DNA of 58,589 nt from a virus (Duplodnaviria; Caudoviricetes). The stretch lies in the IMG/VR virus record IMGVR_UViG_3300005326_000010, positions 1 through 58,589 of that record; one strand, given 5' to 3'. The notes under the pieces are model-generated. The model was not told where the DNA came from. It saw only the letters and a program-made list of their open reading frames with translations, and searched no databases. A program made the translations under genes and the position numbers. Positions 13,196 to 54,417 of the stretch are shown here, one piece after another; the first letter of the stretch is position 1, and each line of letters starts with the position of its first letter.

Positions 13196-13215
13196 CCTCT
13201 TATCTGTGGACCTCC

Positions 13216-13923: not shown

Positions 13924-14001
13924 TTCCTTTACCTCCCAGATCCTTAGTTTAATTGAAACGATAAAGCCAAACAACCAGAACAGCGAAAAATAATAGTAGG
14001 G

Positions 14002-31981: not shown

Positions 31982-32093
31982 CACATAAACTGTGTCACCG
32001 AAATCCCTTGACAACAACTTATTTTTATGACTAAGTAGGAACCCTACCCCCTACCTTTTCACCTTTTATTTTTTGTTCTGCCCAGGAGGCGTC

Positions 32094-34964
32094 GTGGATA
32101 TTGCAGACCTGATCCCACGCAGCGGGTATTATTGCGCTGCGCGGTTGCTTTCTTCGGGAGGTTTCTCCCATAATTTCTTCGATACCCCAGACGCCCTCAA
32201 AACCTATATCATTAATATGGATGCCGCTGGACATACTATGTATGTCGCTCAAGCGACGTTCGATAAAGTCAAAGTTCAATCTGCTATCGCAGATAACGCC
32301 GCCCTCCCCAAAGGCTCTCCGAAGAGCGACTTCAAAGGCCGCCGGACGCAGGACAATGCTACGCTTCTGCGAAGCTTTTTTCTTGACATAGACTGTGGTC
32401 AGGAGAAGTTCGACAAGACCCCGACGAAAGCGTACCGCTCTCAGGCAGAAGCCGCCAAGGATCTGAAACGTTTCTGCGACGAAACGAAACTCCCCTTCCC
32501 CACCCTCGTGAATTCGGGTAATGGCTTGTATGCACATTGGGTTCTTGTCGATGACGTGGACACCTCTCGTTGGCGTGTTGTCGCTCAGACTTTGAGAAAC
32601 GTCTGCCAGGCGTATGAACTCCGCATCGACCCGCCACGTACCTGTGACACTGCCTCGGTACTTCGACCGGTCGGCACGACCAACCGCAAGAATGGTTCGG
32701 TGAAACCCGTTAGAGTGCTCCACAAGGCACCACCGGTCTCGCTGGTCGAGATGGCGGAGCTGCTTACCGCCGCCGGGAAGAAAAAGAAGCTCAAACTCGA
32801 GCACCACCTCCTGCCGGCGAAGTACGAAGGTCTCCTGAACGAATTCACTGCCGGGATCGAAGGCCCACCATCCTCGCTTCTCCTGGTTGCCGAGCGTTGC
32901 CCGCAGGTACGAGCGGTCAGGGACAGTCAGGGTGACGTGGACGAGCCGCTCTGGTATGGCTTTATCGGTATGGCGCGGTACACGATCGAGGGGATGGAGC
33001 GTCAACTCATCCACGAGTGGAGCCAGGGTCACGACGACTATTCCGTCGAAGCGACAGAGCGCAAGATCGAGCAACACATCGCCTCCGGCGTCGGCCCCAC
33101 CACCTGCACCAAATTCGCTGCGGATAACCCTTCCGGCTGTATCGCCTGCCCGCACAACGGCAAGATCAAGAGCCCGATCACCTTGGGCCGCCCGGAGCCG
33201 GAGAGCATCGAGATTCCGGAAGAGCAGCAACCGCCGCCGATGGGTTTTACCCGTTCGCACGACGGGATTTATCACACAGAATCAGAGGGCGAGCAACCGC
33301 AGCGGGTTTACGACTACGACCTCTATCCGGTGCGCCTTGCCTTTGACCAATCCCTCGGCTACGAGACTGTGACCTTTCGGCACAACTCGTTTCGCTCCCG
33401 GGAATACACAGAGTTCACCGTCCGCGCCTCCACCATCAACGACCAGAAACAATTCCTCATTACCCTGCACGACAACCACGTCCAGATTGTCGGCGCATCG
33501 AGAAAGAAGCACATGATGAGTTATTTGGATTCCTACATGGCTGAACTCCGCGCCCGCCGCGACCTCGCCTCGCTCTGCACCCAGATGGGTTGGCGAGAGA
33601 AGAACGGCGAGAAGCTCTTCGTCTGCGGCGAGACGATCCTGCAGAAAGGGAAAGACCCTCAGACCGCAGGTTTCGCCCGGAACATCCCGCAGGTCGCTCG
33701 CTCCTTCACCCAGAAGGGTGATCTCCAGAAGTGGGTTGCCGCAACGCAGTACCTCGATACTCCCGGCATGGAGCCGTTCGCCTTCGCTTTTCTAGCCGGT
33801 GCCTTCGGCTCCCCCTTGTTACATTTCACCGGTTTCGCCGGTGCGATGGTGGCGATGATCGGCTCTTCCGGCGCAGGCAAGACCCTAATCGGCGAGTGGG
33901 CGCTCTCCGCCTATGGAGACTCGACGCAATTGAAACTGCAAGAGGCCGATACAAGAAACAGCCTTGTGGCAAGGCTAGGCATCTATGGTTCAATGCCTGC
34001 CTACCTGGACGAGTTATCGAACATCGAGCCGCAAGACTTGTCCGATATTTTATACCGGGTAACGCAGGGCAGGGATAAAGTCAGGCTGCAGCGTACCGGC
34101 GTCGAAAGAGATGTTCTGAATCACTGGCAGTTGATCGCCGTCGCCTCGTCCAACCACTCCCTCGTGGACAAACTCGCAATATTAAAGTCCAATGCCTCGG
34201 CGGAGATCAATAGAATTTTGGAGGTCTACACACATCCGGTTGACACGTTCTTGCAGAACGCTACACCTATTTATAGAATTTTCTCCGAGAACCACGGGGT
34301 AGCTGGACCAAGATACTTGCAGTATCTTGTTGACAAACAAGATGGCCACCGCGCCGCGATGGACAAGATCGTAAACGATCTAAATAAGAGAACGAAAGCC
34401 AAGAGCGACGAGCGGTACTGGTCAGCGGTCGCCGGTGCCTCCATCTACGGCGGGCTGATCGCCAAGCAGTTAGGTCTGATCAAGTTCGACGTGAAGAGGA
34501 TTTACGAGTGGTTGTCTTCGACGATAACCGAGTCAAGGAGCGTGAAGCAGGACCTCACCGCCTCCGGTGTTGACCTGATCGGTCAGTTCTTGGACGACCG
34601 CATCATGAACGCCTTGTTTACCTCTGGGAATGAAGGGAAGCAGTTGGTCAGCATCCTGCGAGAACCTCGCGGGGCGATCGAGTATCGCATCGACATTGAC
34701 ACCCACCGCCTTTACATCGACCGGACGAAGCTCCGGGCCTGGTTGAATAAGAACTACGGCTCCTACAGCGACCTGAAGGACGAGCTGACGCAGAAGCGGG
34801 CCTTGGTGTCCACAGATACCAGAAAAGTCCTGGGAGGTAATACGTACTTGGGCGGAACACAAGTGCCGTGTTGGGTGATTGATCTTAAAACTCCGGTGCT
34901 TGGCCGGCAGATCATGGGGATTGTGAAACGGGAAACTGAAAACTTAAAGGAGGCCGCACAGTGA
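32094..34964 (+). CDS. AEP-type primase fused to DUF927/SF3-like helicase
   Basis: FLDID, NSGNG, VLRPVGT, CIAC zinc site, Walker A GSSGAGKT, Walker B YLDE; GTG start after AGGAGG. Confidence 0.88.
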   Translation: MDIADLIPRSGYYCAARLLSSGGFSHNFFDTPDALKTYIINMDAAGHTMYVAQATFDKVKVQSAIADNAALPKGSPKSDFKGRRTQDNATLLRSFFLDIDCGQEKFDKTPTKAYRSQAEAAKDLKRFCDETKLPFPTLVNSGNGLYAHWVLVDDVDTSRWRVVAQTLRNVCQAYELRIDPPRTCDTASVLRPVGTTNRKNGSVKPVRVLHKAPPVSLVEMAELLTAAGKKKKLKLEHHLLPAKYEGLLNEFTAGIEGPPSSLLLVAERCPQVRAVRDSQGDVDEPLWYGFIGMARYTIEGMERQLIHEWSQGHDDYSVEATERKIEQHIASGVGPTTCTKFAADNPSGCIACPHNGKIKSPITLGRPEPESIEIPEEQQPPPMGFTRSHDGIYHTESEGEQPQRVYDYDLYPVRLAFDQSLGYETVTFRHNSFRSREYTEFTVRASTINDQKQFLITLHDNHVQIVGASRKKHMMSYLDSYMAELRARRDLASLCTQMGWREKNGEKLFVCGETILQKGKDPQTAGFARNIPQVARSFTQKGDLQKWVAATQYLDTPGMEPFAFAFLAGAFGSPLLHFTGFAGAMVAMIGSSGAGKTLIGEWALSAYGDSTQLKLQEADTRNSLVARLGIYGSMPAYLDELSNIEPQDLSDILYRVTQGRDKVRLQRTGVERDVLNHWQLIAVASSNHSLVDKLAILKSNASAEINRILEVYTHPVDTFLQNATPIYRIFSENHGVAGPRYLQYLVDKQDGHRAAMDKIVNDLNKRTKAKSDERYWSAVAGASIYGGLIAKQLGLIKFDVKRIYEWLSSTITESRSVKQDLTASGVDLIGQFLDDRIMNALFTSGNEGKQLVSILREPRGAIEYRIDIDTHRLYIDRTKLRAWLNKNYGSYSDLKDELTQKRALVSTDTRKVLGGNTYLGGTQVPCWVIDLKTPVLGRQIMGIVKRETENLKEAAQ

Positions 34965-35766: not shown

Positions 35767-36420
35767 TTATACCTCCTGATACACCTGCTCATAGAAACTC
35801 GCTCCGACGACGATCCCGGTGTTATCAGCGTCCGGGGTGAACTTGAGAATATAGTCCTCGTTCTGCTTCAACATCAACTCATCCTCCCTGCCGGAAGACC
35901 CTGAGTTCCTCGTCAAACCCACGCCGTTCGTACCGGTACGGTCGCTCCATAAAAGAGTGCCGTCAGCGGAGACGGTCGTATCCTGAAAGGCGGTAACGGA
36001 TGGCGTCCCCGCAGAGTTGCGGTTGTTGAATATCGTCACCGCGGTACCCGCCCCGGTGAGCGTCGGGTTTTCAAAAAACTCCCAGAGTCCTGCGCCGGTT
36101 GAAGTATAGCGGAGGAGCAGGTGCGCCCATGCTGTCGTGTTCGGCGTCGTAATTCGGATATATTTCGGTGCAAGGGTGTCCACGTCGGTATCGGAGACGG
36201 TGGAGAAAAAGTGCTCGCCCTTATGGATTTTGTGGTGCGAGAACGAGATCTCCACCAAGGAGTGCGACCCCTGATCGAGAATCGCCTCTTTCGACGTCGC
36301 CTCCCCGGTACTACCCATAATCCGAACTGCGTCGGTCTCCACGGCGAGGGTACCGGTCTTTCCGGTCACGACCTCCTGTTGGTATTGATAACCATTGGCG
36401 TCTCTTGGTATCAGCGTCAT
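35767..36420 (-). CDS. Hypothetical virion-associated protein, last gene of the late arm
   Basis: Beta-rich; ATG overlaps the stop of the giant gene. Confidence 0.65.
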   Translation of the reverse strand: MTLIPRDANGYQYQQEVVTGKTGTLAVETDAVRIMGSTGEATSKEAILDQGSHSLVEISFSHHKIHKGEHFFSTVSDTDVDTLAPKYIRITTPNTTAWAHLLLRYTSTGAGLWEFFENPTLTGAGTAVTIFNNRNSAGTPSVTAFQDTTVSADGTLLWSDRTGTNGVGLTRNSGSSGREDELMLKQNEDYILKFTPDADNTGIVVGASFYEQVYQEV

Positions 36421-39400
36421 TTGTCACTCCTCTGGAGTCCGTACTGCTCCTCAATAATCAGTTCTTTCTTCGACTTCTTGCCGCCGGCGCGGTTCTGTAG
36501 CGCACGTTTCGTCGCCGTCGCCAGCTCCTTGTAGGAGATTTTCAACCTCGGCTGCGAAGTACCCCAAGAACTGATCTTCTCTACTGCTTCTTCCTTCGCC
36601 TCGTAGTCGTTCTCGGCAACGGCGTTCGCATAATCTTTGAGGAGCCTCGACCGGCGCTGCGTCAGCGTTGTCGAAAGATTCGACAGTTCTCTCGCCTCTT
36701 CTCTCGCCAGAGAGACATCGATCGGGTTGATCCCGGTCAGCATCAGGGCGACGGAGTACATATTCACATCTTCCGGCTGCAGGAGCCTCTTCCCGGAGGC
36801 CGTCGTCACGCCGTTCTCGGTCACGTCGTAGGCCTTGAACAAATCCTTAATAACCTTTGGCGAGCTGTACTGCATCGCCTTGCCGTACTCGCCGTTGGCG
36901 AGAGCGTCCTGCGCCTTTGCCATATCTCCCACGATCGACCACGACGGCCCGAGCAAGCGGTTGGCGTACCACGACGTTCTCTGCGAAGCGGTCATCCCCG
37001 GAGGCGGGTCGCCCTGAATCATATCGGCCATACCACCCATACCAATTCTTCGTGATATGTCCATACCGAAGGCCGCCGGCAGACCTTTTTCTATTACCGT
37101 GGCCGCACCGTCACCGATGGAGGCGTGGAGAGCAGCGGAGAAATCCCGCTCCAGATCCCAGGGGTCGTCCGGGTCTTCGAACATCCAGGAGATCGCACTC
37201 ATCAGGAGCGAGGTGAAGGAGTTGGAGAAGAGCATCGTGATCGGCGTCCCGGCGGCCCCGGCCAACATGAAGGCGATACCGGTAGAAAAGGCGAACTCCC
37301 TTCGCGCCTGTCTTTTTGCATCCTTCGCTTCTTGAATCAGCTTCTCATCGCCGTTCGCATCTACGATCGCTCGGTCGTACTCCTTCCCGATCGCGTCCTT
37401 CATCATCTGAAAGACTTTCCCAATGGTGTGCATCCGGAAGAATTGGAATTGCAGGAGCAGACGACCAGCGTTGCCTCGGGCGATCTTCGGACGATTCTCA
37501 GGGGAGAAATCGTACAATGTATCCCTAATTACCGTCTTAATTGTGTAGTCCATCGCCCCGATGAAGTCGCCATCATAGGCAAGGTCAAAGGACGAGATCG
37601 CCGCCGCTTTTCTAGAACCGGTCTCCGACTTCCTCATGAAGAACCCGGACTTCTCCACCAGCTTGTTGAGCAGGGTATCGGCACCGTCAGCCCCGACGAT
37701 CTGGTCGTGCAGGTCGTGAGAGCGGGACAACTCGGTCCCTCCGTGGAGGGCCGCAACGCGCAGGACGAGCATCTTCTTACCAGTCGCATCAAGCGGCTCA
37801 TAAAGCTGCTTCAGCAAGACGTTGATCGCTGCCTTCTCTTCACTGGTCTCTTTGGTCAGACGCGCTTTCAGCGCGGTCAACTCATTCCTGTTTTTCACTT
37901 CAAGGCTCTTGAGTTCCGCCGCGCTTGCTCCTCGGACTTTCTCACCATCGAAGTTTTTAGTAGACGTGCGCTCCGCCGCTTCCATCTGGTGACGCATCTC
38001 GGTATCCACGGCGCGGAAGCGTTCGATTAACGCAACGACCTTCTCCCCGACCTTATTGTTCTCCTGGTTCCACTGATCGACTTTCTCGTCGGAATACTTG
38101 CTGGCCATGTACTCCTTGGCCGCCTTGAAGTAGGCGCCCGACGCCCTGGAGAAACCAAACCGCGCCGCCAGTTTCGGGATGGTGAAGATCAACGGCTGCG
38201 ACCACTGCACCGCCCAGACCGAAGGGGAAGAGAGCATCTGCATGAAGGTGATCTTTTGCAGGGTCTGCACCGCAGGGTGAATAACCTCCTGCATCCGGTG
38301 CTGGTCGGTATATTCGAGGCTCTGCACTAGAGCGAGCATCATGTTGATATCGTGGACCTCGGGGTTCTTGCCGGGAGCCTGCAGTTCGCGAATGATGTTG
38401 TGCATCTCACGGTACTTGTCAGCGATCCTCCAGCCGTAGCGAGCCTTGGCGACGCTCTGCGCCTCTTTCCGGATATAACTGCCATAGGCCTTGATAATAT
38501 CGGTGTCGAAACCGGCGATGCCTTTCCTTTGCAGCTTGTTCCCTTCGCCCGAGTTCGGCGAGAGGGTGTCCACCCAGAGGCGTTTCAGATCCTGAACGAA
38601 GTTCTCATAGGCTTCGCCTTCCAGACCCCGCTCCTTCGCCTTTTCCTCGATCGAGGAAACGAAGCCTGCGGGCACGTTCGTGTAATTGCGTCCGAGAATC
38701 TCCGCCTCGCGATCGAACTCGGTGTGCAGACCCTTCGCCCGTTGGTCTTCTATGAAGACCAGGGCCTTCTTCTCGGAGTCGAACATCCGCGCTTCCAGTT
38801 CCTCACCCTTACCCTCTTCCCAGACCCTGACCATGAACTTGCCGTCACGCATCAGCGGCATGTAGAGTCCTCGGAGCACCTTGGCGAACTGCGCTTCAAT
38901 CCTCTCCGCTTCCTTCTCATACCCTTCGGTGTCTTCGCCGTAGGCGTACTTCAGACCGTCGAGGAGCGCTTCTTTGTGCGCGGTGCGGAGGGCTTTCATG
39001 TGGTCAACGAGGGTTTTCACCGTGTCCTTCTGCGGCTGGGTCAGCTTCGCCCATGCTGCGGAGAGGTCTTTCTTCGCTTCTACGAGATCCTTGGCCGAGG
39101 CAAACTCGGAGTTCCCGGTTGGGGTCCATGACTCGTCGAGCCACTGAGAGGCGAGCGGAGCGAGAGGGTCAAGCTGATACAACGTCGCTTTCCACACCGC
39201 GTTTTCGATATTTCTAAGTTCCTCATCGGTCTTGGCTGACGCCAAGAAAGCATCAGCGTGAACACTGCCGTCATTCATCTGCGCTTGTGGGTACCGCGAC
39301 TTCTGCGTCTTCAGGTCTTCAAGGTCGATCAACGAGCGACGGAGCGGCTTCGACCAGGGGGAGGACACGGCGAGCCTGATCATCCGGTCCACTGGGTAGA

Positions 39401-42400
39401 CGAAATTGACAAAGGCCGTGCCGACATTCTCCAGCCAGCGCTTCAGGTCGCTCGGCGTCGAAGAGGCTTTGCCGAGGTTATCGACAAATTCCCGCGCTTT
39501 CGCCGGGATACCCGCGCTCCGATTAAACCGCGCCGTGATCTGCACGTCTTCCTCGTTGAAGATGACGTAATTGAAAGTCTGGTCTTTACCTAGTTCCGCT
39601 ACGGCAGTGCGTAGCGCATCGCTTGCGTCGTAGTTATCGAGATTCTTCCCGAGGGCTGCGCTGATTGCCTGCGCCGGGTAGTCGAAGCCAAGCCAGTCAT
39701 CGGCGTCAAGTGCCTTCAAGAATGTTTCCTGCTCCGCTGAGAACTTCCCGGTGCCGATTAAGTCCGTTACGTCTTCAAAAGTCGCGTCTTCCGGCAGTTC
39801 GTCGAGGAACGCCTGCTTGATTTCACGCATCGGACGATGCCGGCTCGACCCGTCTAGATACTTGATACCCCGGATGCCGAGGGAGTGGAGGTAGTCGGAG
39901 GCGGCGCGGTCGGAACCATATTCATGCGTCATTTGTTCGTATATGGTTTTACCTGTGCTGGATTTCTTTAAGCCGTATGGCTCCAATGCTTTGTCAGCAT
40001 TTAAGAGTTGTGTTTTGAGGCCCTGCCCCCGACCGTCAAACCAATTATTTATAAAAGTGTTGCGTTCGATACCTCTTGGTAACTTACTCGCAGCAGCCTC
40101 CATCGTGGACATTTCTTCTTGATATTGCGTTTTTAATCTAGCCGCAATATCTCGTAGTTCTTTTGCAGCATCGCCCATACCTATGCTATCCAGCGCCTCC
40201 TTCACCTTCTCGCTCTGCTCAGAGAGCGGCTTATCCCAGAGAAGGTATTCGTCTTCCTTCGGCGCGAGTTCGACTTTGTAGAGCCTGCCATTGGAGGGAA
40301 GCAGTGTAATCGCATCGTTTATCCGTTTAAAATCATCTCCCAAAAGATTGGCCACTTTCATTGACGGCTGACTTGACGCCAAATCCGATACAATATGTCC
40401 TACTGCAAGTGGTCCTGTTCCATGAAAACTGTCTTTTGTAAGTGCTTTTTCTATAAGAGCATACACCTCTGGGTCGTGCGCTCTTAAAATTTCGGCATGG
40501 TCGGTCAATTTTGTGCGTGAGGCTGCTACTGCTTTGCGGTAATACTCCGCAACCTCTTTATTCTCCGCAAAATAAAGCCCGTATCCATAAGCCTGAGCAC
40601 CTTCGCCCGTACCGATCTTCTCCGTGGAGAATTTGTCCACATCATGCGGTGTACCATGCCACGCGGCGGCGAAGCGAGGGTCGCCTTCAGCAGCTTTTCG
40701 GGCGTACTTGGCGAAGACCTTCGCGACTACTTCCTCGGCGCGGTTCACGTCTTTCAACACGACCTCGGAAACCTGCATCGCTTCGAGGTCGCGACTGGTC
40801 TGACTGAAGAAATCTTTTATCCTCTGAATGATCCGCGCGAACAGCGACGGTTCTTTCTGCGCCATCTTCTCCCAGAAGGACGGCTTCATGAAGTTGGAGC
40901 CTACGATGTTGCCGAGGTACTCGTCGAAGATCTGGCTCTCGTTGTTCTTGTCGTACCTACCGCTCTTGATAAGCGCGGAGTATTGGGCGTAGACGCCTTC
41001 ACGCGAGATGCTCGCTATGTAGTTCTTGAACTCCTTGTAGGTTGCTGGATCGTCTCGCTCCAGAGTATGAGTGAGTTCGTGACCGAGGAGTGCAAGATGG
41101 GGGAGTGATGCATTCTCGGCAAGGTAGATGTTTTCGTTGTCTGAAGTGATGAAACCTGCGGGTAGCTTGAGGCCAGGCGCTGTCTTATAGAGCCGGATTG
41201 TCTTTCTGAAAAGATTTGCGAGAGCCAGAAGTTCGGGAGGTGTTCGAACAAAGGTAATATCCTCTGGTCTAACTTCTTCACCAAACGTCCCTTTGAAGTC
41301 TTTGACAATACGTTTCTTTGCCTCTTCGTCACCGTTCACCATCCTCTCTTGTTCATTCTCTGTGAACATCACCTCACCCGCCCGAGCGACGAGCGCACGT
41401 AACTCCGTATCGCTGATCTTCAGGCTCAACCCGACGCTCCGCAGCCACGCCTTCAGACGGGCGATGAACTTATCAAGAAGCGGAGATTTCCCCTCGCCCT
41501 TGGCGAGTTCGACGATATATTCCTCAGTCGCTTCGAGCTTACCCTCTTTGGTCTTGTAGTCGATACCTTTGGAGTTCGCGAACTCCCTGATCTTCGCCCC
41601 CTGGTCCGACCAGGCGACACCGAGGAAATTATCGAAGGCGCGGCCCATGAGAACCCGGAGACCGGCGTGACGGATTTCGTGCTTGAAAAGCACCTCATGT
41701 GCTTCCTCAACGGAGTTGAGGTTCTCAGCTACCAGATAAATCTTCCCGTCATGGAAAACGCCGTTAAAGGCGAAGCCGGGGTCTTCGAGTCCGGGGATCT
41801 GCGAGGCGGAGTCCACGACGACAACCGGGATTTTGAGTTTCGGGGTGATCGCTTTCAGCGACTTTTCGATGTCGGCTTTGGCGACTCCGGTTCCACCTTC
41901 CTTGTTAAACCTCAACCCCTTCGCATAGGCGTAATCGACCGAATCGACGACCTTGGGGTTCTTCAGGTACTTCAGAGTTTCAGGGTCATTGGTTTTCAAC
42001 CAGGCACCAACCCTGTTAAGGGTTTGAAAGCCACCCTCCGGTGTCATGAAGCCCTGCTCTGCCTGACCTTTGGCATACTCAGTTTTGACGCCGTGGCGTT
42101 CGGCGAGGTCAACGTGCGCTTCGCCGGGAAGACCTGTAAGGGTACGACCTCCGACCACTAGAGCGGGTTTCAGGACTTTTAATTCTTTTATGTCGGCGTC
42201 TGAGAGGCGGGAGAAGCGGGTGTCGTCCCGGAGAAGGTCGCGGACGTATAATGCGATTCTGGCCTTCTTTATCGCGTTGACATTCCTGTCTACTATCTGC
42301 TGCTTTCTTTCTGGCGACATGCGGTCTCGGATAGGCCGAGCGTTTACTTCTTGCATCCTCGCAAGCTCTTTTTCAACATCAGCGTTCAGACCGTACCTGC

Positions 42401-44525
42401 GGTCAATCTCTGCCCACGTTGCCGCCGGGATCGCTGTTAATTCGTCATCAGTAATTGTCTCGGCCATAGCAACAAGGCGGTTGTCACCTTTGGCGTTTAT
42501 GACATTCTTCATCGCGCCGATGATGCTTTTGGGTAGACCGCGCTGCGCCAAATCAATAACACGGGAGAAACGGGTAGTCACCCGTGACTTCGACCCAGGG
42601 GTGACGCTCTTACCCTCGGCAACTACGGTCATGCGACCCTGTGGGTCTCTCTGCATCACCATCTCATGCGCTGCGGGTGCATAGTCAACGGCGTCTACGC
42701 CGCTTATCGGTCGGCCTTTCCCGGTGCGCACGTCCACGACGTAGCGGGGGTTCTCGGTTTTCGCTCTGCTCAAAGCCTCCAAGGAGGCGGCGGATTCTCC
42801 ACTTGCGTTATTCTCAGTCCTTGAGAATCGGGATTCCGACCCTTTGAAGCTCAACCCGGTCGTCTTGGCGACAACCTGCAACGCCTTCATCCGCGCTTCC
42901 GGGGTCTCGGCCTCGGTGATGTCAAAGGTTCCGTCAGGGAGGATTTCCGCAGTTGCAATAACATTCGGACGACCACGGGAGTCTTTACCCAACCAAGTCA
43001 GAGTGTCGCCGTCTCGTCGTACCGCCTGTTGATTGCCGGTGCCTTCGACATAGTTGTACTTTCCGTCTTCGATTACATTGGATGCTCGCACTGCGGGCAA
43101 CTCTCCGCTTGTCGATCCATCCACATCCTGCACCAGGGGCATCTCTTTGGGGCGGGTCGCGGTTTCAGCGAGACCGGGTGTGGTTTCTCCAACGCCTCCA
43201 ACCTCGATACTTCTCGGCGGTTCGACTGTGGTTTCGGCATCTGTTACTCCTTCCTCCGGAAGAAAATATCCCTGCTCCCGTGCGAAGTCCATCTGACCTG
43301 CAGGGACAGTCTCAATCTCACCGGTCTCCGGGTTCACCATCTGGAAGTCGCCGGTTGTTTCTGGCGTGGTGATATTCTCGAGAATCTCATTGATATCCTT
43401 ATCGGGGTTCGCTGCGAACTCTTTCAGGGTCTCGGTGATCGACTCTTCCAGAGGCTTTGCCGGCTGGAGCCACTCATCGGTCAGCGGGATTCTCTCGCCG
43501 TTGGCTACGGCATCGACCGCACGGGATTTCCAGATATCTCGGCTCCCTTCCGGAAGGGCAGAGTACACCGTGTTTACCGCGTCGAGCCGTGCGCTCTGTG
43601 CGACCCTCGGGTCTTCGAGGGCTTTGCGTGTTACCCACTGCTGGAAAGAGTTAATACCTTGGGCGCCGCCGCCCATGACACCACCGGCAAGGAGACCGGT
43701 AGCCGCTGCCGCTCCAACTCCTTCAGACCAAGGCTGCCCTGTTGCGAGGTTCTGCGCCGCCTGCTCCTGCGCGGACTGCGGCATCTCTTCCAGTGCGCCT
43801 TCGGCAAGTGCGCCCTTTGCGACGCTGCGGAAGAATTTACCCGGTTTCCCAACTGCGTCTTGGACGAGGCTTCCTCCGGTTGCGCCAGCGCGACCACCAG
43901 CGAGGAGGGTATCAATGTCGGCGATGCCGAGTTTCTGGGCGAGCTTACCACCAATGACCCCGAAGCCGCCGGTCAAGACGCCGCTTCCTGCGGCGATGGC
44001 ACTCTGTTGGGGGGTGAGGTATCCGGTCTCTTCTCTGATCTGTTCTGCCGCGGCGCCGGCGCTGATTGCGCCCTCGCCCATGGCCCCTGCGACAATCGGG
44101 GCTACTTTGGGTGCTGCCTTCAGGACACCTCTAGCAATACCGGCACCACCGAGCATCGAGGGCGCGGACTCGATAACCGAGTGGGCGATGGTCGAGGGGT
44201 TTTTAAGCGCCTCCGTAACCGTTGGGATGAACCCTTTCGCCTCGCTGACTTTCTGAAAAGCGGCCTTCTGTTCCGGCGAATAGTATTCATCCAGAATTTT
44301 CCGCGCCTCGGCAGGTCGATACCCGGCCTTGTTCGCCAGCCGCCCGACAAAACCGCCGGTCGGGATATCGGCTAGCCCGACAACCGCTTCCGGTAAGGCG
44401 ATCGCACCCTTTAAGGCCGAGATCGCCGGGTCAGCAACGAAACGACGAAAACCGCCGGTCTTCTGACCCTGCGGCTCTACGTCTTCCCAATCTCCAGGTT
44501 TTACATCTTCCCAATCAGAAGGCAT
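36417..44525 (-). CDS. Giant polyvalent/ejection protein (2702 aa): hydrophobic Gly/Ala N-domain, two zincin HExxH domains, ART-like domain, PLxRFG-like C-domain
   Basis: HEIRH (41667-41681), HELTH (41067-41081), WHGTPH...GTGEGAQAYGYGLYF, YMPLMRDG (~38850). Confidence 0.85.
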   Translation of the reverse strand: MPSDWEDVKPGDWEDVEPQGQKTGGFRRFVADPAISALKGAIALPEAVVGLADIPTGGFVGRLANKAGYRPAEARKILDEYYSPEQKAAFQKVSEAKGFIPTVTEALKNPSTIAHSVIESAPSMLGGAGIARGVLKAAPKVAPIVAGAMGEGAISAGAAAEQIREETGYLTPQQSAIAAGSGVLTGGFGVIGGKLAQKLGIADIDTLLAGGRAGATGGSLVQDAVGKPGKFFRSVAKGALAEGALEEMPQSAQEQAAQNLATGQPWSEGVGAAAATGLLAGGVMGGGAQGINSFQQWVTRKALEDPRVAQSARLDAVNTVYSALPEGSRDIWKSRAVDAVANGERIPLTDEWLQPAKPLEESITETLKEFAANPDKDINEILENITTPETTGDFQMVNPETGEIETVPAGQMDFAREQGYFLPEEGVTDAETTVEPPRSIEVGGVGETTPGLAETATRPKEMPLVQDVDGSTSGELPAVRASNVIEDGKYNYVEGTGNQQAVRRDGDTLTWLGKDSRGRPNVIATAEILPDGTFDITEAETPEARMKALQVVAKTTGLSFKGSESRFSRTENNASGESAASLEALSRAKTENPRYVVDVRTGKGRPISGVDAVDYAPAAHEMVMQRDPQGRMTVVAEGKSVTPGSKSRVTTRFSRVIDLAQRGLPKSIIGAMKNVINAKGDNRLVAMAETITDDELTAIPAATWAEIDRRYGLNADVEKELARMQEVNARPIRDRMSPERKQQIVDRNVNAIKKARIALYVRDLLRDDTRFSRLSDADIKELKVLKPALVVGGRTLTGLPGEAHVDLAERHGVKTEYAKGQAEQGFMTPEGGFQTLNRVGAWLKTNDPETLKYLKNPKVVDSVDYAYAKGLRFNKEGGTGVAKADIEKSLKAITPKLKIPVVVVDSASQIPGLEDPGFAFNGVFHDGKIYLVAENLNSVEEAHEVLFKHEIRHAGLRVLMGRAFDNFLGVAWSDQGAKIREFANSKGIDYKTKEGKLEATEEYIVELAKGEGKSPLLDKFIARLKAWLRSVGLSLKISDTELRALVARAGEVMFTENEQERMVNGDEEAKKRIVKDFKGTFGEEVRPEDITFVRTPPELLALANLFRKTIRLYKTAPGLKLPAGFITSDNENIYLAENASLPHLALLGHELTHTLERDDPATYKEFKNYIASISREGVYAQYSALIKSGRYDKNNESQIFDEYLGNIVGSNFMKPSFWEKMAQKEPSLFARIIQRIKDFFSQTSRDLEAMQVSEVVLKDVNRAEEVVAKVFAKYARKAAEGDPRFAAAWHGTPHDVDKFSTEKIGTGEGAQAYGYGLYFAENKEVAEYYRKAVAASRTKLTDHAEILRAHDPEVYALIEKALTKDSFHGTGPLAVGHIVSDLASSQPSMKVANLLGDDFKRINDAITLLPSNGRLYKVELAPKEDEYLLWDKPLSEQSEKVKEALDSIGMGDAAKELRDIAARLKTQYQEEMSTMEAAASKLPRGIERNTFINNWFDGRGQGLKTQLLNADKALEPYGLKKSSTGKTIYEQMTHEYGSDRAASDYLHSLGIRGIKYLDGSSRHRPMREIKQAFLDELPEDATFEDVTDLIGTGKFSAEQETFLKALDADDWLGFDYPAQAISAALGKNLDNYDASDALRTAVAELGKDQTFNYVIFNEEDVQITARFNRSAGIPAKAREFVDNLGKASSTPSDLKRWLENVGTAFVNFVYPVDRMIRLAVSSPWSKPLRRSLIDLEDLKTQKSRYPQAQMNDGSVHADAFLASAKTDEELRNIENAVWKATLYQLDPLAPLASQWLDESWTPTGNSEFASAKDLVEAKKDLSAAWAKLTQPQKDTVKTLVDHMKALRTAHKEALLDGLKYAYGEDTEGYEKEAERIEAQFAKVLRGLYMPLMRDGKFMVRVWEEGKGEELEARMFDSEKKALVFIEDQRAKGLHTEFDREAEILGRNYTNVPAGFVSSIEEKAKERGLEGEAYENFVQDLKRLWVDTLSPNSGEGNKLQRKGIAGFDTDIIKAYGSYIRKEAQSVAKARYGWRIADKYREMHNIIRELQAPGKNPEVHDINMMLALVQSLEYTDQHRMQEVIHPAVQTLQKITFMQMLSSPSVWAVQWSQPLIFTIPKLAARFGFSRASGAYFKAAKEYMASKYSDEKVDQWNQENNKVGEKVVALIERFRAVDTEMRHQMEAAERTSTKNFDGEKVRGASAAELKSLEVKNRNELTALKARLTKETSEEKAAINVLLKQLYEPLDATGKKMLVLRVAALHGGTELSRSHDLHDQIVGADGADTLLNKLVEKSGFFMRKSETGSRKAAAISSFDLAYDGDFIGAMDYTIKTVIRDTLYDFSPENRPKIARGNAGRLLLQFQFFRMHTIGKVFQMMKDAIGKEYDRAIVDANGDEKLIQEAKDAKRQARREFAFSTGIAFMLAGAAGTPITMLFSNSFTSLLMSAISWMFEDPDDPWDLERDFSAALHASIGDGAATVIEKGLPAAFGMDISRRIGMGGMADMIQGDPPPGMTASQRTSWYANRLLGPSWSIVGDMAKAQDALANGEYGKAMQYSSPKVIKDLFKAYDVTENGVTTASGKRLLQPEDVNMYSVALMLTGINPIDVSLAREEARELSNLSTTLTQRRSRLLKDYANAVAENDYEAKEEAVEKISSWGTSQPRLKISYKELATATKRALQNRAGGKKSKKELIIEEQYGLQRSDK

Positions 44526-47242: not shown

Positions 47243-48685
47243 TTACTCCTGTTCTATCCTGGTTACAGTCTTTCCAGTCGCTATGCCCCACAGGTAATTG
47301 TAGGTAACGTCCGTTTCAATCTGCGTCCACAGAATCTCGCCGGTTTTCTTGTCGAACGCCTGCTTGATAGGCTTGCGCCCTGAAGACTCTTTTTTGAACC
47401 CGGAGACGTAGACGTTCTTGTCGTCAATCGCTATATCAGTGAGGAACGGGCCGACATCGTACCCTGCCCCGTCGTCATATACTACCGACCATAATTCCTC
47501 GCCACCTTTGTCCAGCCCTTTTACTTCATAGCCGTGGTAATCAAACGACCCTGTTTTGGGTAATTGTCCTACGGTGTAAACCCCAGCTTTATCCGCTGCA
47601 ACTCCCTTGTCGATGGTGAGGAAATCATCGACAACGAAATCGTAGGTAACGGAGAGCGCGAAATTATCCGCTCCTGCCGGGTCTTGGTCCAAAGTCTTTA
47701 TCCAGCGGTCCGTCATCGTGACGACGTTCCGCGGACCGCTCTTTTCAGGGTCTCGAACCGCGACCGCTATCTCGTACATGGACGCCCGAGGGAAGGGGCT
47801 TGTGTAGAGGGTGTCGGTCGCGGTAGACTCGACATCGCCAGTTGTTTTGTCAATGGTAAGGACTCGACCCTGCTGGTACTGCGGTGAAGATCCCCACAGT
47901 GCGTACGCCGTCACATATAGCGCTCCTTTATCCACCGCGCAGGCAACCGCCCGGTCATAGGTGCCGAGCTTCGGGTAAAGCTTCTGCCAGATCAACGACC
48001 CATCACCCAAGCTGCGTTTCTCGACCTGTACGAATGAGCCATTGTAGACTCCGCCGAAGCCTTTGCCAATGACGTAAAGGGCTTTGTCATCGACTGCTAT
48101 GTCTATTGCCTCGCCGCTGGAGTCCTCAATAATCCATTTCTGCGTACCGTTTTTGCCGCGTTTCTCTATCGTCCAACCGAACTCATCGAAATAACCGTCG
48201 TCGATCGTGTACTTGAACGACCTGCCTACGGTAAAGACGTTCGCGTCCTTGTCTACTGCCGACTTGTACGCGGAGTAATACGTTCCGGTGACATTGAGGT
48301 ACTCATCCCACTTTGTTGTGCCGTCTTGCTTCACCTTATTGACTCGCCACTTATTGCTGTTCGAGGTCTGCCCGTAACCGCAGAATACCGTGTGCCACGT
48401 CGTGAGTTCGATCACGGAGCCTTTCTTCCGTTTTTCAGGTGGTCGGTAAATGTTCACGTAATCCTTGCCGTCTGCCGACCATGCGGTCATCACCGTACCG
48501 TCTTGGAACGCGCGGTCTTTCAGCGCATAGAAGCCGGTCTTGTTCAGGTTCCGGAGTTGGTAGAGCATCAGGTTCGCATCGCCGAGATGTGCCTTGCACA
48601 CCTCCTTGTCGCCCGCTACGGTGATTCTTGCGTTGAACATCGAGAATGTTGCCATAATAATCACCATCCAGATCAATCGACTCAT
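47243..48685 (-). CDS. Beta-propeller-like tail protein (start 48685 or 48654)
   Basis: Repeated (I/C)AVD...(L/V)YV.G and G...W blade motifs. Confidence 0.65.
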   Translation of the reverse strand: MSRLIWMVIIMATFSMFNARITVAGDKEVCKAHLGDANLMLYQLRNLNKTGFYALKDRAFQDGTVMTAWSADGKDYVNIYRPPEKRKKGSVIELTTWHTVFCGYGQTSNSNKWRVNKVKQDGTTKWDEYLNVTGTYYSAYKSAVDKDANVFTVGRSFKYTIDDGYFDEFGWTIEKRGKNGTQKWIIEDSSGEAIDIAVDDKALYVIGKGFGGVYNGSFVQVEKRSLGDGSLIWQKLYPKLGTYDRAVACAVDKGALYVTAYALWGSSPQYQQGRVLTIDKTTGDVESTATDTLYTSPFPRASMYEIAVAVRDPEKSGPRNVVTMTDRWIKTLDQDPAGADNFALSVTYDFVVDDFLTIDKGVAADKAGVYTVGQLPKTGSFDYHGYEVKGLDKGGEELWSVVYDDGAGYDVGPFLTDIAIDDKNVYVSGFKKESSGRKPIKQAFDKKTGEILWTQIETDVTYNYLWGIATGKTVTRIEQE

Positions 48686-49575
48686 TACCGTTTCCTCGAC
48701 AGCCCTGCGAGTAGCAGGACTAGTTCCTGAAGCTCCAAAGACCCCCCAGCGACGTTCGCCAGACGGTAGCGCCATCTGCGTCCCTCGGCACCTTTCCCTG
48801 GTCGGAAGCGGTGTTGCTGTAGGACGCTCGAAGCGGCTCCGATCGAGGGGTAGGTGTACCCCGCGCCATCATCTTCATAGAGCGTGAGCGCAAGAGTCGC
48901 ATCTGTCCGGGCGAGGGCATGGGCGTCGAGGATCTTCGACTGCTGCCCTTTGGCGTACTCGACATCACCAGAGTCGAGATAGGCGGAGATCGACGTTCCG
49001 TTGTCATTCGACCCTGAAAGAAGATAGATGCCTGTCGAATTTACCCCGTAGTAATTTCCGCCATCCTCGAAGAACGAGTCGAAGGCGAAGTTGGAATACT
49101 CCGTCACACCGCGAAGCGATGGATTCACCGAGAAGGTATTGAACGCGCCGAGAACAGTAATGCTCCCGGCAAGGTCGGTCATCACCCCGGAGATCGCGCC
49201 GAGAGGAACGACACCAGCGACGATGTTCCCGGAAAGGTCGGTCATTACCCCGGAGATGAGTGCAAGCTTCTGCGTCGAGGCGACCACCGTGCCGGAAAGA
49301 TCGCGCATTGCCCCAGATAGAACGACCTTGTTACCGGAGACGGCGATGATCTCACCGTCGAGGTCGGAGAGAACGCCCGAAACGCGGCCAATCCGCCCGG
49401 AATAGGCGGTGATCGCACCCTCCAAGTCAGACAGTTCGCCCCTGATCTCGTCCCACTTCTGCGAGCCGGTGATCTGTGTAGTGCCGCTTGAGAGGTCAGC
49501 CAAGACCCCGCCGACCGTTGCTACCCCGACTTCAGAGTAGAGGTCGGCGAGTATTCCAGCAATGGAGTTCGCCAT
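48685..49575 (-). CDS. Tail protein with ~22-aa N-terminal repeats
   Basis: Seven G-x-(L/M)-x-DL-x-G-type repeats; C-domain YSNFAFDS...GIYLLSG. Confidence 0.65.
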   Translation of the reverse strand: MANSIAGILADLYSEVGVATVGGVLADLSSGTTQITGSQKWDEIRGELSDLEGAITAYSGRIGRVSGVLSDLDGEIIAVSGNKVVLSGAMRDLSGTVVASTQKLALISGVMTDLSGNIVAGVVPLGAISGVMTDLAGSITVLGAFNTFSVNPSLRGVTEYSNFAFDSFFEDGGNYYGVNSTGIYLLSGSNDNGTSISAYLDSGDVEYAKGQQSKILDAHALARTDATLALTLYEDDGAGYTYPSIGAASSVLQQHRFRPGKGAEGRRWRYRLANVAGGSLELQELVLLLAGLSRKR

Positions 49576-49584
49576 AATACCTTC

Positions 49585-50367
49585 TTAGGCCGCGGCCTGA
49601 GAGATCGCTACGCTGTCGATGGTTGTGGTTGCGCCGGCGGCGAGGCTGGTGGAACTCATCGTCATGACCGTCCCGGCGGTGGCGATGTCCATATCGACCC
49701 TGATCAGCGTCGTGGATGCTCCGCCTGCGTCAGCGATCGAGCCGACGAACCGCGCCCAGCCTGCGGTACCTGTTGCAGCGTTCACACCAGACCAAACGCC
49801 CTCTTTCGTGATCTCGCCGGAAGCGGTCGTACCCCACTGAATGCCGTTCGCCGGATCGACACCGGAGGCCATGTTCGCCGGGGTGTTAGTGATCGTGGTC
49901 GAGGTGCAGGCAACGACATGGCCGTTTACCGAGTCGCCGAGGCCGGGGGCGGGCTTCAGGGTAATGATCGCTCCGGCGGAGGTCGCCACATAGCCGTGCC
50001 AGTGCGTACCTTTATTGATCTGCGTCGCGGTATCGGCAGCGGTCTGGGTTAGCGAAGCGTTGAAGGAGACCGGCACGGCGGCGGAGAACTGGTTTGGCGA
50101 GAGCATCTGCACGGAGTTGACGGTGATCGAGTCAACGGTACCTGCGGCACCTCCGGTCAGGGTGACGGTTCCGGAGGCCAAGACCTCGGCGGTTCGCGCC
50201 CCGGACGCCTGGGTGATGGTGCAGAGGAGCGTTCCGGACGGTGCGGTGTCGGCGGTTGCCGGCTGAGTTCCGGAGTAGATGAGCAAAGCGCCATTTTGTA
50301 GTGCTCGCTGAAACGAGCCGTCTCGCATCCTGAAAGTTCTGTAGCCTGTTGAGTATCTGAATCCCAT
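49585..50367 (-). CDS. Tail/virion structural protein
   Basis: LIYSGTQPATAD...GTAGWARF pattern seen in phage tail proteins. Confidence 0.7.
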   Translation of the reverse strand: MGFRYSTGYRTFRMRDGSFQRALQNGALLIYSGTQPATADTAPSGTLLCTITQASGARTAEVLASGTVTLTGGAAGTVDSITVNSVQMLSPNQFSAAVPVSFNASLTQTAADTATQINKGTHWHGYVATSAGAIITLKPAPGLGDSVNGHVVACTSTTITNTPANMASGVDPANGIQWGTTASGEITKEGVWSGVNAATGTAGWARFVGSIADAGGASTTLIRVDMDIATAGTVMTMSSTSLAAGATTTIDSVAISQAAA

Positions 50368-50379
50368 AATCTTTCTCCT

Positions 50380-50958
50380 TTACGCTGTCGGTATATTGTT
50401 CCAAGAAACTCTTTTTTCTGAACTACGCGGTACTGAACCCCACGCAGTGCTCTGAGATGTCGCTGCTGGTACATCGCTCCAGAGCATCGTCCTGACTTGC
50501 GGGTCCGGTGGAGGTACGTCGGGCGGGTAGACAATATTAAAACCGGTCAGACCACTAACACTGAAAACAGGTTGCAGGGTAAAATGCAGTTCTCCGAACC
50601 ACCCTTCTCCCGCAGAAGTCGCGTTCAGCTCCGCGAGGCTGAACGTCGGTGCAACGATAAAGCCCAGACCGGCAAATGCGCCTTGCTGAAGGCCGGCAAG
50701 GTCTCCGAGCGCGAAAGTCGGAGCGACGGTGAACCCTAAAGCGGCGAACAGCCCGACCTGATTCGCGGACAAAGCTGAAACACTGAACGTCAGGGCAACA
50801 CTGGTTGTCAGAGAACTAAAAGCACCTACCTGGACACCAGCAAGACCAGACACCGCAAACGTCGGGCTAACTGCGAACGATAGTGCGGCGAAGGCCGGGG
50901 CGGCTGCGCCTCCGAGACTCGCTAGTGGTGTTTCTGCTATCGCCAAGTGTCCGAGCAT
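50380..50958 (-). CDS. Hydrophobic repeat structural protein
   Basis: MLG..AIAE.PLA start; five ~24-aa repeats. Confidence 0.6.
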   Translation of the reverse strand: MLGHLAIAETPLASLGGAAAPAFAALSFAVSPTFAVSGLAGVQVGAFSSLTTSVALTFSVSALSANQVGLFAALGFTVAPTFALGDLAGLQQGAFAGLGFIVAPTFSLAELNATSAGEGWFGELHFTLQPVFSVSGLTGFNIVYPPDVPPPDPQVRTMLWSDVPAATSQSTAWGSVPRSSEKRVSWNNIPTA

Positions 50959-50962
50959 ATAC

Positions 50963-51751
50963 TTACCCTATAAATCTACAAACAAAGTCCGCGTAGTAAT
51001 ACATATTTCCAGGAGAACCTGTCTTTGTTGCATTCACAAAAAACTGTATGTCACCCGCAGTTACTACTGAGTCAGCAGAAACGTCATGCCTCGCCCATAC
51101 ATTTGCCGTGTCAGATTGGGTGTTGAAAGAACTACCCACATTATGTGTGGTAAGATCGACAGCCCTTGTACATGGTTGTAATGTCCAGTAATTCGACGCA
51201 TTTGATGTGCCTGCAATTAGTGTTATTAGCTGTACTTCTACTACATATAGACCGTTTGCCCCGTGATGAAGCATCGCTGATGACTTGCCAAGCCCTGTTG
51301 CACTCATAGGGAAGAAAGCCTCTAACAAACCAAGTCTTGAAATAATCATCTGGAGACTCAGCCACCGAGTCCCATCATAATAATATTCAATGCCCCTGTC
51401 AGTCCTAAAGCGCCGTTCTCCTGTAACGGGTGAAGACGGGAAACTTGTTCCAGAAGTGTCAAGTCCCCTTGCCGCAACCGTCAAGAAAACGTCCTTCGTT
51501 CCTGCGCTGAAATTGACGGCATTATTCGAATTTGAACTGGAAAGCACTGTTGTGCGAGTCAGCGTATTCGCCGCCGAGTATGTTCCTAAACCTACTTCCC
51601 ATTCTGAACCGACGCTAATGCAGTAGTAGCAAGTATCATTGGTCGAAAGCACTGAAGCGAAGGTGCGGAATCCGGTAGCCGCTCCGGCAAGAGTGAAGTC
51701 TCCTGTTCCGGTTGTTGTCGCGGTTTCTTTTACGCGGTCAAAGTATTTCAT
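50963..51751 (-). CDS. Tail fibre/spike protein
   Basis: DRVKETATTTGTG...WEVGLGT...NFSAGTKDVF anchor domain; YYDGTRW hinge; AT-richer C-terminal domain. Confidence 0.75.
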   Translation of the reverse strand: MKYFDRVKETATTTGTGDFTLAGAATGFRTFASVLSTNDTCYYCISVGSEWEVGLGTYSAANTLTRTTVLSSSNSNNAVNFSAGTKDVFLTVAARGLDTSGTSFPSSPVTGERRFRTDRGIEYYYDGTRWLSLQMIISRLGLLEAFFPMSATGLGKSSAMLHHGANGLYVVEVQLITLIAGTSNASNYWTLQPCTRAVDLTTHNVGSSFNTQSDTANVWARHDVSADSVVTAGDIQFFVNATKTGSPGNMYYYADFVCRFIG

Positions 51752-52170
51752 CAGAATTGCACCGGATTCGCCATCGGCCATGTCATCGTCTGGCCGTCTG
51801 TCGCGGTTTGGGGCGCAGCGGAGGCGTCTTTCACACTTACCAGCTTCGCGCCGGTCATGGTGTTGGTGGTGTTGCACCAGAGGGCGGCGTAGGATGCGGG
51901 GCCGATGGACCCCCCGGAGGCAGTCCAGACCGCATCAGCGAGATCGACGTTGTAGGTCGAAACCACGGTCCCGGTACTGAGTGCTACCCCTCCTTGCGTA
52001 TAACCCGCACCAGTAGCCAGTTCGCCAGCCATCCCGGCACCTGTCCAGGCATCGGTCGAAGCCGCGAGCACCGAGCCGCCGGTATCGTGGAGGGTAGCGA
52101 AAAAGTAAAGAGCGGCGGTGCGCGTCGCTGATAGAGCCCTGAATCCGGCTGCGTTGGATATATCGGCCAT
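51751..52170 (-). CDS. Tail structural protein
   Basis: ELATGAGYTQGG...DAVWTASGGSIG pattern. Confidence 0.7.
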   Translation of the reverse strand: MADISNAAGFRALSATRTAALYFFATLHDTGGSVLAASTDAWTGAGMAGELATGAGYTQGGVALSTGTVVSTYNVDLADAVWTASGGSIGPASYAALWCNTTNTMTGAKLVSVKDASAAPQTATDGQTMTWPMANPVQF

Positions 52171-52180
52171 GATTTACCTC

Positions 52181-53083: not shown

Positions 53084-53099
53084 GTCTACCTCGTTCTCG

Positions 53100-54050: not shown

Positions 54051-54051
54051 G

Positions 54052-54417
54052 TTATTTCCTCGTCGTGTAGGGCCCGTCAGTCACCTGGAAAGGGATCGCC
54101 GGATACGGTACCCATTCGTCATACTCAGAGCCGTCATCGCGCTTGCGCTTTACCTGGCGGGCACTGATACAGGTTCGGAGGTTCTTGATAAAGGCTTCCG
54201 GGATGTTCGGCACATCCTCGCCGCGCTGGATCTGAAGGACTTCGCCGTTTACCCCAACGACCTCATACTCCGGCAAGTGCTCGACGAAGGCGATATTGAT
54301 TGTGTAATACGGCGGTGCATATTCGATCTTACCCTTATAGGTCTTCGGAGCTTCTGGCGCTTTTGCGTTCTCTGCGGGTTCAAGGTCAAGGCCGAGGTCT
54401 AAATCTGTGCCACTCAT
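54052..54417 (-). CDS. Conserved head-module protein
   Basis: VGVNG..LQIQRGEDV..P pattern found next to N4-gp56-type capsids. Confidence 0.65.
   Translation of the reverse strand: MSGTDLDLGLDLEPAENAKAPEAPKTYKGKIEYAPPYYTINIAFVEHLPEYEVVGVNGEVLQIQRGEDVPNIPEAFIKNLRTCISARQVKRKRDDGSEYDEWVPYPAIPFQVTDGPYTTRK

Follow-up and report, generated by a model that had tools for sequence, protein, structure and literature searches.

A recurrent junction peptide at the cassette seams of a giant phage polyvalent protein, with a possible role as a processing site

Few phage proteins are as large and as variable as the polyvalent proteins, and whether they act as one chain or in pieces has been a question since they were defined. 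A short peptide that recurs at the junctions of their domains makes this question testable at named residues. Such a peptide is found in a giant open reading frame (ORF) of a virus of the Caudoviricetes (IMG/VR record IMGVR_UViG_3300005326_000010), whose 58,589 bases, a complete virus record with direct terminal repeats that is rated 100% complete, constitute the window analysed here. The ORF (36417..44525, minus strand) codes for 2,702 amino acids (aa) in one uninterrupted frame, and the PHROG and Pfam matches of its translation mark the product as a polyvalent virion-type protein. A first-pass annotation of the bare sequence had pointed to six related tetrapeptides at apparent module boundaries and had proposed that they serve as cleavage or translocation signals for the release of individual effectors. 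According to the analysis reported here, RF(S/N)R very probably is a family-wide junction peptide, which lies in the linkers between cassettes and marks their points of exchange. The same peptide could be the cleavage site of a self-processing polyprotein, a candidate function that we advance tentatively.

All six tetrapeptides occur where they had been described: RFSR at aa 566-569 (42819..42830), aa 652-655 (42561..42572) and aa 770-773 (42207..42218), RFNK at aa 872-875 (41901..41912), RFAA at aa 1284-1287 (40665..40676), and RFNR at aa 1666-1669 (39519..39530); like all features of the ORF, they are on the minus strand. The first four delimit three modules of 86, 118, and 102 aa, in agreement with the predicted ~85-120 aa, and are followed by two HExxH motifs between RFNK and RFAA (at aa 949 and aa 1149) and by an ADP-ribosyltransferase (ART)-like domain between RFAA and RFNR, where the only ART-PolyVal Pfam match of the protein is located (aa 1288-1332, below cut-off). 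RFAA is, as far as its wording goes, a degenerate member of the motif, and is counted only because relatives have ETRFAR (P0027) and QVRFAQ (P0013) at the same module end, the junction behind the second of the two HExxH modules (zincin 1 and zincin 2). In total, six to seven of about nine junctions of the giant ORF carry a similar short peptide. The codons of the three RFSR copies differ, as had been noted (CGA TTC TCA AGG, CGT TTC TCC CGT, and CGC TTC TCC CGC), and the DNA common to them is only about TTCTC. RF(S/N)R is conserved at the peptide level and not at the DNA level. A DNA-level recombination signal was rejected as the main explanation, because TTCTC is too short for homologous recombination.

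In a protein of this length, a recurrent tetrapeptide might be a coincidence noticed after the fact. RFSR is seen three times in the giant ORF, with 0.02 copies expected, and the five copies of RF[SN][RK] are not reached in any of 5,000 composition shuffles. The naive figure for RFSR is overstated, because 81% of the shuffles hold some tetrapeptide three times; four others (TGGF, AISA, AEIL, and LKTQ) do so in the ORF itself, and RFAA and RFNK were admitted by loosening the pattern. Corrected for this look-elsewhere effect, 1.6% of 3,000 shuffles contain a threefold tetrapeptide as improbable as RFSR (p about 0.016). The plain RF dipeptide is not enriched (9 vs 5.6 expected), and the 9,631 aa of the window's remaining 22 large ORFs contain one [MLRK][FY][SN][RK] against five in the giant ORF. 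Chance is essentially excluded by the family data that follow, in which 119 other proteins show enrichment of the motif and its coincidence with breakpoints, and in which an unbiased scan recovers it.

The relatives were retrieved with aa 1-350, a constant and family-defining N-terminal domain (43476..44525; phrog_30335, E=2.4e-79); of 8,000 candidates scored, at least 615 giant proteins matched it at E<=1e-10. Family counts refer to the best 120 of these at least 615 relatives, query included. They share the N-terminal domain and mostly also the C-terminal region, and their middles differ completely, with SNF2 helicases, methylases, GGDEF, RadC, ART, and many LPD domains. Variants of the motif are 5-17x over-represented among them: RFSR occurs 19 times (2.1 expected), RF[SN][RK] 35 times (7.0), MFSR 14 times (0.8, 16.6-fold), LFSR 20 times (2.7), and RYSR 10 times (1.6). 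The first position is M, R, L, or K, often preceded by D or T and then I or T, which gives the family consensus [DT]-[IT]-[RLMK]-[FY]-[SN]-R. RF(S/N)R is, in this comparison, the local form of x-[FY]-[SN]-R, represented by RFSR, MFSR, LFSR, RYSR, and KFNR. The 109 sites that match [MLRK][FY][SN]R are distributed over 64 of the 120 proteins, none of them within the first 20% of any protein, and the giant ORF (five strict sites) and P0093 (four copies of RFNR) are the richest. Motifs of one protein that have unrelated flanks resemble each other: 15 of 78 pairs (19%) share the first three letters, compared to 6.8% after shuffling (p=0.0005), in a test that counts related proteins (P0128/P0130 and P0038/P0081) as independent.

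Breakpoints of homology, defined by the starts and ends of high-scoring segment pairs (HSPs) in an all-vs-all BLASTP comparison of 130 proteins, coincide with the motif. In the giant ORF, HSP starts and ends pile up at aa 555-584, 630-674, 855-929, and 1275-1289, and these positions equal RFSR-566, RFSR-652, RFNK, and RFAA, respectively. A further pile at aa 1020-1064 falls on MFTE (aa 1052-1055; 41361..41372), a degenerate junction between zincin 1 and zincin 2 that was not in the original list of motifs. The HSPs of ten homologues of the module M1, behind the first RFSR, start at aa 529-572 (eight of them at 559-572) and end at aa 642-685, and the HSP of the next module, M2, with P0027 starts at aa 652. 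Around RFNK, 20 HSPs start in aa 855-899, 13 of them at 870-884, and eight starts and seven ends fall into aa 1275-1289 around RFAA. Further upstream, aa 300-524 contain no HSP starts and only scattered ends, and no relatives were found for the acidic, Thr-rich linker and module M0 that occupy aa 351-565 (42831..43475) ahead of the first RFSR. Across the 130 proteins, 48 sites of the form [RK]F[SN][RK] have a median breakpoint-density percentile of 0.87, and 42% and 67% of them are in the top 10% and top 25%, respectively. Ten sites without a nearby breakpoint are variants inside conserved domains; nine of these have K as their first or last residue, and an RFNR in P0049 is the tenth. In the unbiased scan of tripeptides, 58 of 111 FSR (7.7-fold) and 25 of 48 YSR were near breakpoint hot-spots; only WHG and AWH, from the start of the ART, ranked above them, and MFS, RFS, IRF, RYS, and proline-rich linker triplets came next. 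Conversely, [FY][SN]R is found within 15 aa of 88 of 761 breakpoint peaks (11.6%) compared to 2.9% of random positions, and the 11.6% is a lower bound because many peaks are noisy HSP ends.

Inspection of single seams shows that the homologues differ by modules that were gained, lost, or swapped at precisely this motif, consistent with the proposed cassette swapping. The ART-PolyVal-like module (aa 1288-1665; 39531..40664) ends with the strand NYVIFxDEDVxIxA, recognised in the family as N[YF]V[IVL]F, which is followed at a fixed offset by [KR][FY][SN][RK] in 12 of 16 cases and by near variants in the other four. Zincin 1 follows this motif in P0047, P0058, and P0059, the C-terminal region does so in the giant ORF (P0001), P0014, P0029, and P0043, and other sequence in P0032, P0034, P0039, and P0065; it is this comparison of ART ends that defines RFNR as the junction between the ART and the C-terminal region. 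Likewise, the Gly/Asn-rich tail IKSAxGNxGxFDxxNPDI leads into RFSR, RYSR, LYSR, MFSR, or RFNR, strictly so in 8 of 16 cases and as [FY][SA]x in five more. Modules of different kinds precede the homologues of zincin 1, which begin at KFNR, LFSR, or MFSR, and the junction after zincin 1, degenerated to MFTE in the giant ORF, reads ETRFSA, ETRFTT, or DATRF in relatives. The homologous protein of Pseudomonas phage F116 has LFSR ahead of its C-terminal region and AFSR ahead of its ART. In three plasmid-borne proteins, the motif-like peptides LFSA, RFRF, and LFRE are located upstream of zincin-1 homologues, which indicates that the feature is not tied to a capsid.

The three small modules between the first four motifs have very different distributions. 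M1 (aa 570-651, read as 'ENNASGESAASLEA...GVDAVD'; 42573..42818) is a mobile module that shows 39-51% identity to internal segments of ten other giant proteins, which have a different (LPD22) N-terminus. In these LPD22-type proteins (P0002-P0011), the module after M1 often begins with 'RG(T/A)F(S/N/K)PS(T/N)LxISLL...STFLHE' and the ART with 'FKxWFGxSKVVD', and F-containing lead-ins are recurrent at module starts. M2 (aa 656-769; 42219..42560) is a rare module with three homologues (P0027, P0131, and P0133) among 1.84 billion representative proteins. It is flanked on both sides by RFSR in the giant ORF and by RFAR and AFSR in P0027, and by neither in P0133. In P0131 (1,628 aa), its flanks are PVGLS (aa 705-709) and PIGLS (aa 826-830), in the same register as TRFSR of the giant ORF, and no other P.GLS exists in that protein. 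By this position, P[VI]GLS may be an alternative junction motif in another lineage. M3 (aa 774-871; 41913..42206) also occurs in stand-alone proteins, two of which (P0132, 116 aa, and P0137) end where RFNK begins. The existence of free M3, and the fact that Met is the most strongly enriched first residue of the motif, could suggest that the peptides are scars of fusion, i.e. M-[FY]-S-R N-termini of genes that were once separate, or internal starts of translation. However, the first positions of the six motifs here are Arg codons (CGA, CGT, CGC, AGG, CGC, and CGG), which are unable to start translation, the stand-alone homologues of M3 do not begin with the motif, and a word-based search of limited sensitivity found no short stand-alone homologues of the zincin region (aa 860-1290). 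We regard this origin of the motif as very unlikely. A tandem domain repeat, of which the motifs would be the heads, was also rejected: in pairwise Smith-Waterman comparisons of M0, M1-M4, and M6 (after RFNR), with 200 shuffles each and the motif included in the segments, the best z was 2.55, and the modules thus lack convincing mutual similarity.

Structure models agree with the homology breakpoints in placing the motifs at module boundaries. Two AlphaFold2 runs with hand-built alignments covered aa 640-885 (10 rows) and aa 860-1300 (14 rows). The first model has a mean predicted local distance difference test (pLDDT) score of 82.9 and consists of a helical bundle, M2, and a small alpha/beta domain, M3, both scoring about 90-96. 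RFSR-770 is located between them, in a non-regular stretch of nine residues that separates helices 99-127 and 137-143 of the model, where the block pLDDT is only 64, compared to 95 and 91 in the blocks on either side. RFSR-652 corresponds to model residues 13-16, near the end of the construct (residues 1-14 are below 50), and the stretches around RFSR-652 and RFNK score below about 50-57. In the second model (mean pLDDT 79.6), zincin 1 (80-95) and zincin 2 are confident, RFNK and the region of aa 1052-1062 (model residues 195-203) are under 50, and RFAA makes up a short turn that follows the last long helix, where the pLDDT goes down from 74 to 56. The motifs thus are found between confident domains and none of them inside one, contrary to what a refutation of the first-pass proposal would require. 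A Foldseek search of the PDB returned no match at E<=0.001 for either model, i.e. for M2, M3, and both zincins, and the alignment profile found nothing meaningful among the PDB sequences. A predicted complex of zincin 1 (aa 877-1059) with a 37-aa peptide around RFSR-652 scored 0.00, a result obtained with no controls that speaks neither for nor against binding.

The position of the motif could have a purely structural reason. It may be a passive end-cap, which belongs to the C-terminal tail of the ART and to the leads of zincin 1 and of the C-terminal region and is shuffled together with them, and chimeras that keep a familiar seam would fold better. That 12 of 16 ART ends have the motif at a constant distance from their last strand fits this explanation, and so does the almost invariable presence of the motif at the start of zincin-1 homologues, plasmid-borne ones included. 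F is retained before M1 and M3 even in distant or stand-alone homologues (DFRD in P0132, TFQS in P0138), and the low share of breakpoint peaks that have the motif would not be surprising either. A passive cap is more difficult to reconcile with the single motif that serves both the ART and the zincin in P0047, P0058, and P0059, and with M2, whose flanks both carry the motif in two proteins and both carry a different peptide in a third. Moreover, AlphaFold packs the motif at aa 770 onto neither domain, and the similarity of variants within one protein is unexpected for caps that were inherited with their modules. We consider a passive seam an unlikely explanation.

The reading that we prefer attributes a function to the peptide itself. 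The giant ORF is composed of the constant N-terminal domain, exchangeable cassettes (M0-M3, the two zincins, and the ART-like module), and the constant C-terminal region, and the junction peptide would be a processing site. Cutting at the seams would take place in the capsid or once the chain has been ejected into the cell. The likeliest proteases would be the zincins of the chain itself, which nearly always have the motif at their start, and the small modules, the peptidases, and the ART would be set free as separate effectors. This scheme as a whole, cleavage included, is in our opinion the best available explanation, and we hold it with less than even confidence. A processing site is favoured because the peptide resembles a protease recognition site in size and position, because motifs of one protein have their wording in common and another lineage has a different peptide in the same register, and because the motif co-occurs with zincins that begin with it, among them the three plasmid-borne ones. 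A further reason is that autoprocessing by zincins was proposed independently for polyvalent proteins by Iyer et al. (2017; PMC5512222), who also cite P1 DdrB as processed. The idea of self-processing by zincins is, in itself, not new. The shared junction peptide apparently is not described in the main text of this founding paper, in which the strings 'FSR', 'boundar', 'linker', 'disordered', and 'PLxRFG' were not found; its supplements may show the motif. In the literature searched for the names of the motif, it was not found elsewhere. Searches retrieved no functional study of PLxRFG proteins, as judged by titles or abstracts, and no relevant literature on proteolytic processing of F116/DarB virion proteins.

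Several observations weigh against cleavage. The N4 virion RNA polymerase, ArdC, and TraC1 possess such a zincin and yet are packaged or transferred in full length (PMC5512222), and no report of cleavage at the motif was found in the accessible portions of the literature on polyvalent, DarB-like, and PLxRFG proteins. For both zincins, comparison to Pfam peptidase models, PDB sequences, and PDB folds gave no significant match, and their catalytic competence therefore rests on HExxH and a conserved downstream Glu. No HExxH at all is present in 12 of the 64 motif-bearing proteins, and the association between motif and HExxH (odds ratio 3.25, p=0.005) is confounded by protein length. The counting of related proteins as independent detracts from the similarity of motifs within proteins. 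The motif is missing from most seams of the family, an unexpected pattern if it were a general polyprotein code. Of the ten M1 homologues in LPD22-type proteins, most are without the full motif, and 6-7 retain only F at this place. Where the ART ends, the fixed offset means that the motif could count as part of the module. In the structure models, finally, only RFSR-770 and the aa-1052 site are internal to the constructs, and for four of the folded motifs a low pLDDT would be expected in any case, as they are close to the ends of the constructs.

Some of these observations would be better explained by a peptide that is never cut and serves for docking, to a packaging partner in the procapsid, to the portal or tail channel during ejection, or to a host chaperone that assists the refolding of each cassette beyond the channel. 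The peptide is short, exposed, aromatic, and basic, it resides in linkers, and it is present in many copies per chain, as expected for multivalent tethering. Motif-bearing proteins without HExxH and zincin-bearing polyvalent proteins that travel uncut, several of which are named by Iyer et al. (PMC5512222), are in line with such a role. However, the uncharged P[VI]GLS of P0131 in the same register is hard to fit to one conserved receptor of host or capsid, and motif-like peptides are also found ahead of the zincin in three proteins of plasmids, which lack a capsid. We consider docking about as unlikely as a passive seam.

If the junction peptide is indeed a processing site, it would provide domain boundaries for hundreds of uncharacterised cargo modules, and if the chain stays uncut, it would still be a practical marker of cassette seams. 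A more far-reaching, and doubtful, extension is a cleavage code, in which a six-residue junction peptide ([DT][IT][RLM][FY][SN]R here, P[VI]GLS in another lineage) co-evolves with the processing enzyme of each lineage, and in which the ejected giant is cut into timed effectors. Any cassette inserted between two such peptides would then be released automatically, and this would explain the rampant shuffling of cassettes.

In functional terms, the closest analogies are MARTX toxins and viral polyproteins on the one hand and the demarcation motifs of polymorphic toxins on the other. MARTX toxins and viral polyproteins likewise combine effector domains, an embedded protease, and similar short linker peptides in one chain, and in these systems cleavage is proven and a site is present at nearly every junction. 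The analogy is limited in that the candidate protease here is a zincin and that only a minority of the junctions in the family have the motif. Short peptides that mark the seam of a variable cassette exchange are known as VENN in CdiA and PxxxxDPxGL in Rhs proteins. Unlike these, which have a single seam before one C-terminal toxin, the giant proteins have up to 5-7 seams per chain, and the wording varies between proteins (RFSR, RYSR, RFNR, P[VI]GLS).

The giant ORF belongs to the polyvalent proteins and appears to be one of the giant virion-type proteins of the F116/PLxRFG type, and the junction motif adds a new feature to this known class. The first part of this assignment had been anticipated, and is substantiated by the two HExxH modules, the ART-PolyVal-like module, and the match of the C-terminal region to PLxRFG or DarB-like features. 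At least nine segments of the protein have separate sets of homologues, as is typical of a polyvalent protein of many domains, and the Pfam models of polyvalent domains score weakly or not at all. The constant N-terminal domain contains TGGF three times (aa 23, 56, and 185; 44433-44525 and nearby; 0.03 expected), each copy within a Gly/Ala-rich hydrophobic stretch, and TGGF may be a repeated element of this domain. Zincin 1 (aa 876-1051; 41373..41900) has its HEIRH at aa 949-953 (41667-41681) and about 45 homologues in the family, in which His94 and Glu143 (H94 and E143 in alignment numbering), the latter downstream of HExxH, are invariant. Zincin 2 (aa 1056-1283; 40677..41360) is defined by HELTH at aa 1149-1153 (41067-41081), its homologues, and the model, and both zincins are homologous to modules of proteins annotated as LPD1, LPD5, or LPD38. 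For the ART, PF18760 matches 45 residues at aa 1288-1332 with E=5e-4 and 21.2 bits, below the cut-off of 31.2, and the module is 31-45% identical to segments of proteins that are listed with PF18760.

The constant C-terminal region (aa 1670-2702; 36420..39518) appears to be DarB-like or of the PLxRFG type (phrog_11358, E=3.9e-69; phrog_10089, E=9.3e-48). The C-terminal third of the ORF matches, in tblastn searches, features of Klebsiella, Serratia, and Rhizobium phages annotated as 'PLxRFG protein' or 'DarB-like antirestriction protein'; identity to the 'PLxRFG protein' features is 23-27%, and the Pfam model LPD38 has no match at E<=0.1. PLxRFG was taken as the defining signature from such annotations, without a model, and the peptide PKLAARFGF occurs at aa 2117-2125. 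P1 DarB is defined by its methyltransferase and helicase domains. In a Pfam search of the 2,702 aa, neither a methyltransferase nor a helicase domain was found, and thus the giant ORF is not a DarB orthologue. The DarB-like PHROG match covers aa 2288-2680 only (the C-terminal ~400 aa); because the DarB-like label rests on the shared C-terminal region only, anti-restriction activity is not to be assumed.

Among the known proteins, the giant ORF is most easily compared to the polyvalent proteins as defined by Iyer, Burroughs, Anand, de Souza, and Aravind (2017; PMC5512222), which are giant chains of zincin-like metallopeptidases, ART, and LPD domains with highly mosaic cargo and, in phages, are encoded near virion genes. 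JC1 gp69, a DarB-like giant protein of a Bcep22-like phage that is encoded at the end of the virion module, was found in virions by mass spectrometry (PMC9144972). The giant ORF resembles P1 DarB/DdrB and JC1 gp69 as a giant protein at the end of a virion module, a likeness known here from gene context and annotation. Phage phi24B has a 2,811-aa LPD-domain protein, gp47, that contains a metallopeptidase domain, is abundant in the virion, is invisible in cryo-EM, and was proposed to be ejected; its authors suggest a role as conduit or in peptidoglycan degradation (bioRxiv 10.64898/2026.04.10.717836). It is likened to the giant ORF by description only.

In the window, the giant ORF is the last gene of the head/tail (structural) block. 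Other genes code for a portal-like protein (259-2403), a terminase (2818-4284), a primase/helicase (32073-34964), the major head protein (56603-57610), and further virion proteins. The INPHARED set contains no phage that is close to the window at the DNA level. As the similarity of its giant ORF indicates, the virus is an F116-like tailed phage: the N-terminus is 45% identical to that of p59 of F116 and its relatives. In F116 itself (NC_006552), the giant protein is annotated as two ORFs, p59 (47838-54227) and p60 (54250-59199). The last ~80 residues of p59 are Arg/Pro-rich and out-of-frame-like, which suggests a frameshift, either real or a sequencing error, rather than two genes. With respect to a prohead protease, no protease is among the PHROG labels of the 20 neighbouring ORFs, several of which have no match at all.

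A separate ORF of 659 aa (14207-16186, minus strand) contains DUF3560 (E=8e-40) and a SAM-dependent methyltransferase domain, and is without the junction motif. Its PHROG matches are internal segments of giant polyvalent proteins, and the ORF thus appears to be a free-standing cassette gene of the polyvalent type. An HNH endonuclease ORF (55907-56506, minus strand) is located just downstream of the major head protein gene, within the structural block. Finally, the GC content falls to 0.405 in an island at 12001-14000, compared to about 0.55 elsewhere in the window, and a small ORF within it (12601-12996, plus strand), with weak matches to RHH/HicB-antitoxin-like proteins, may be a moron.

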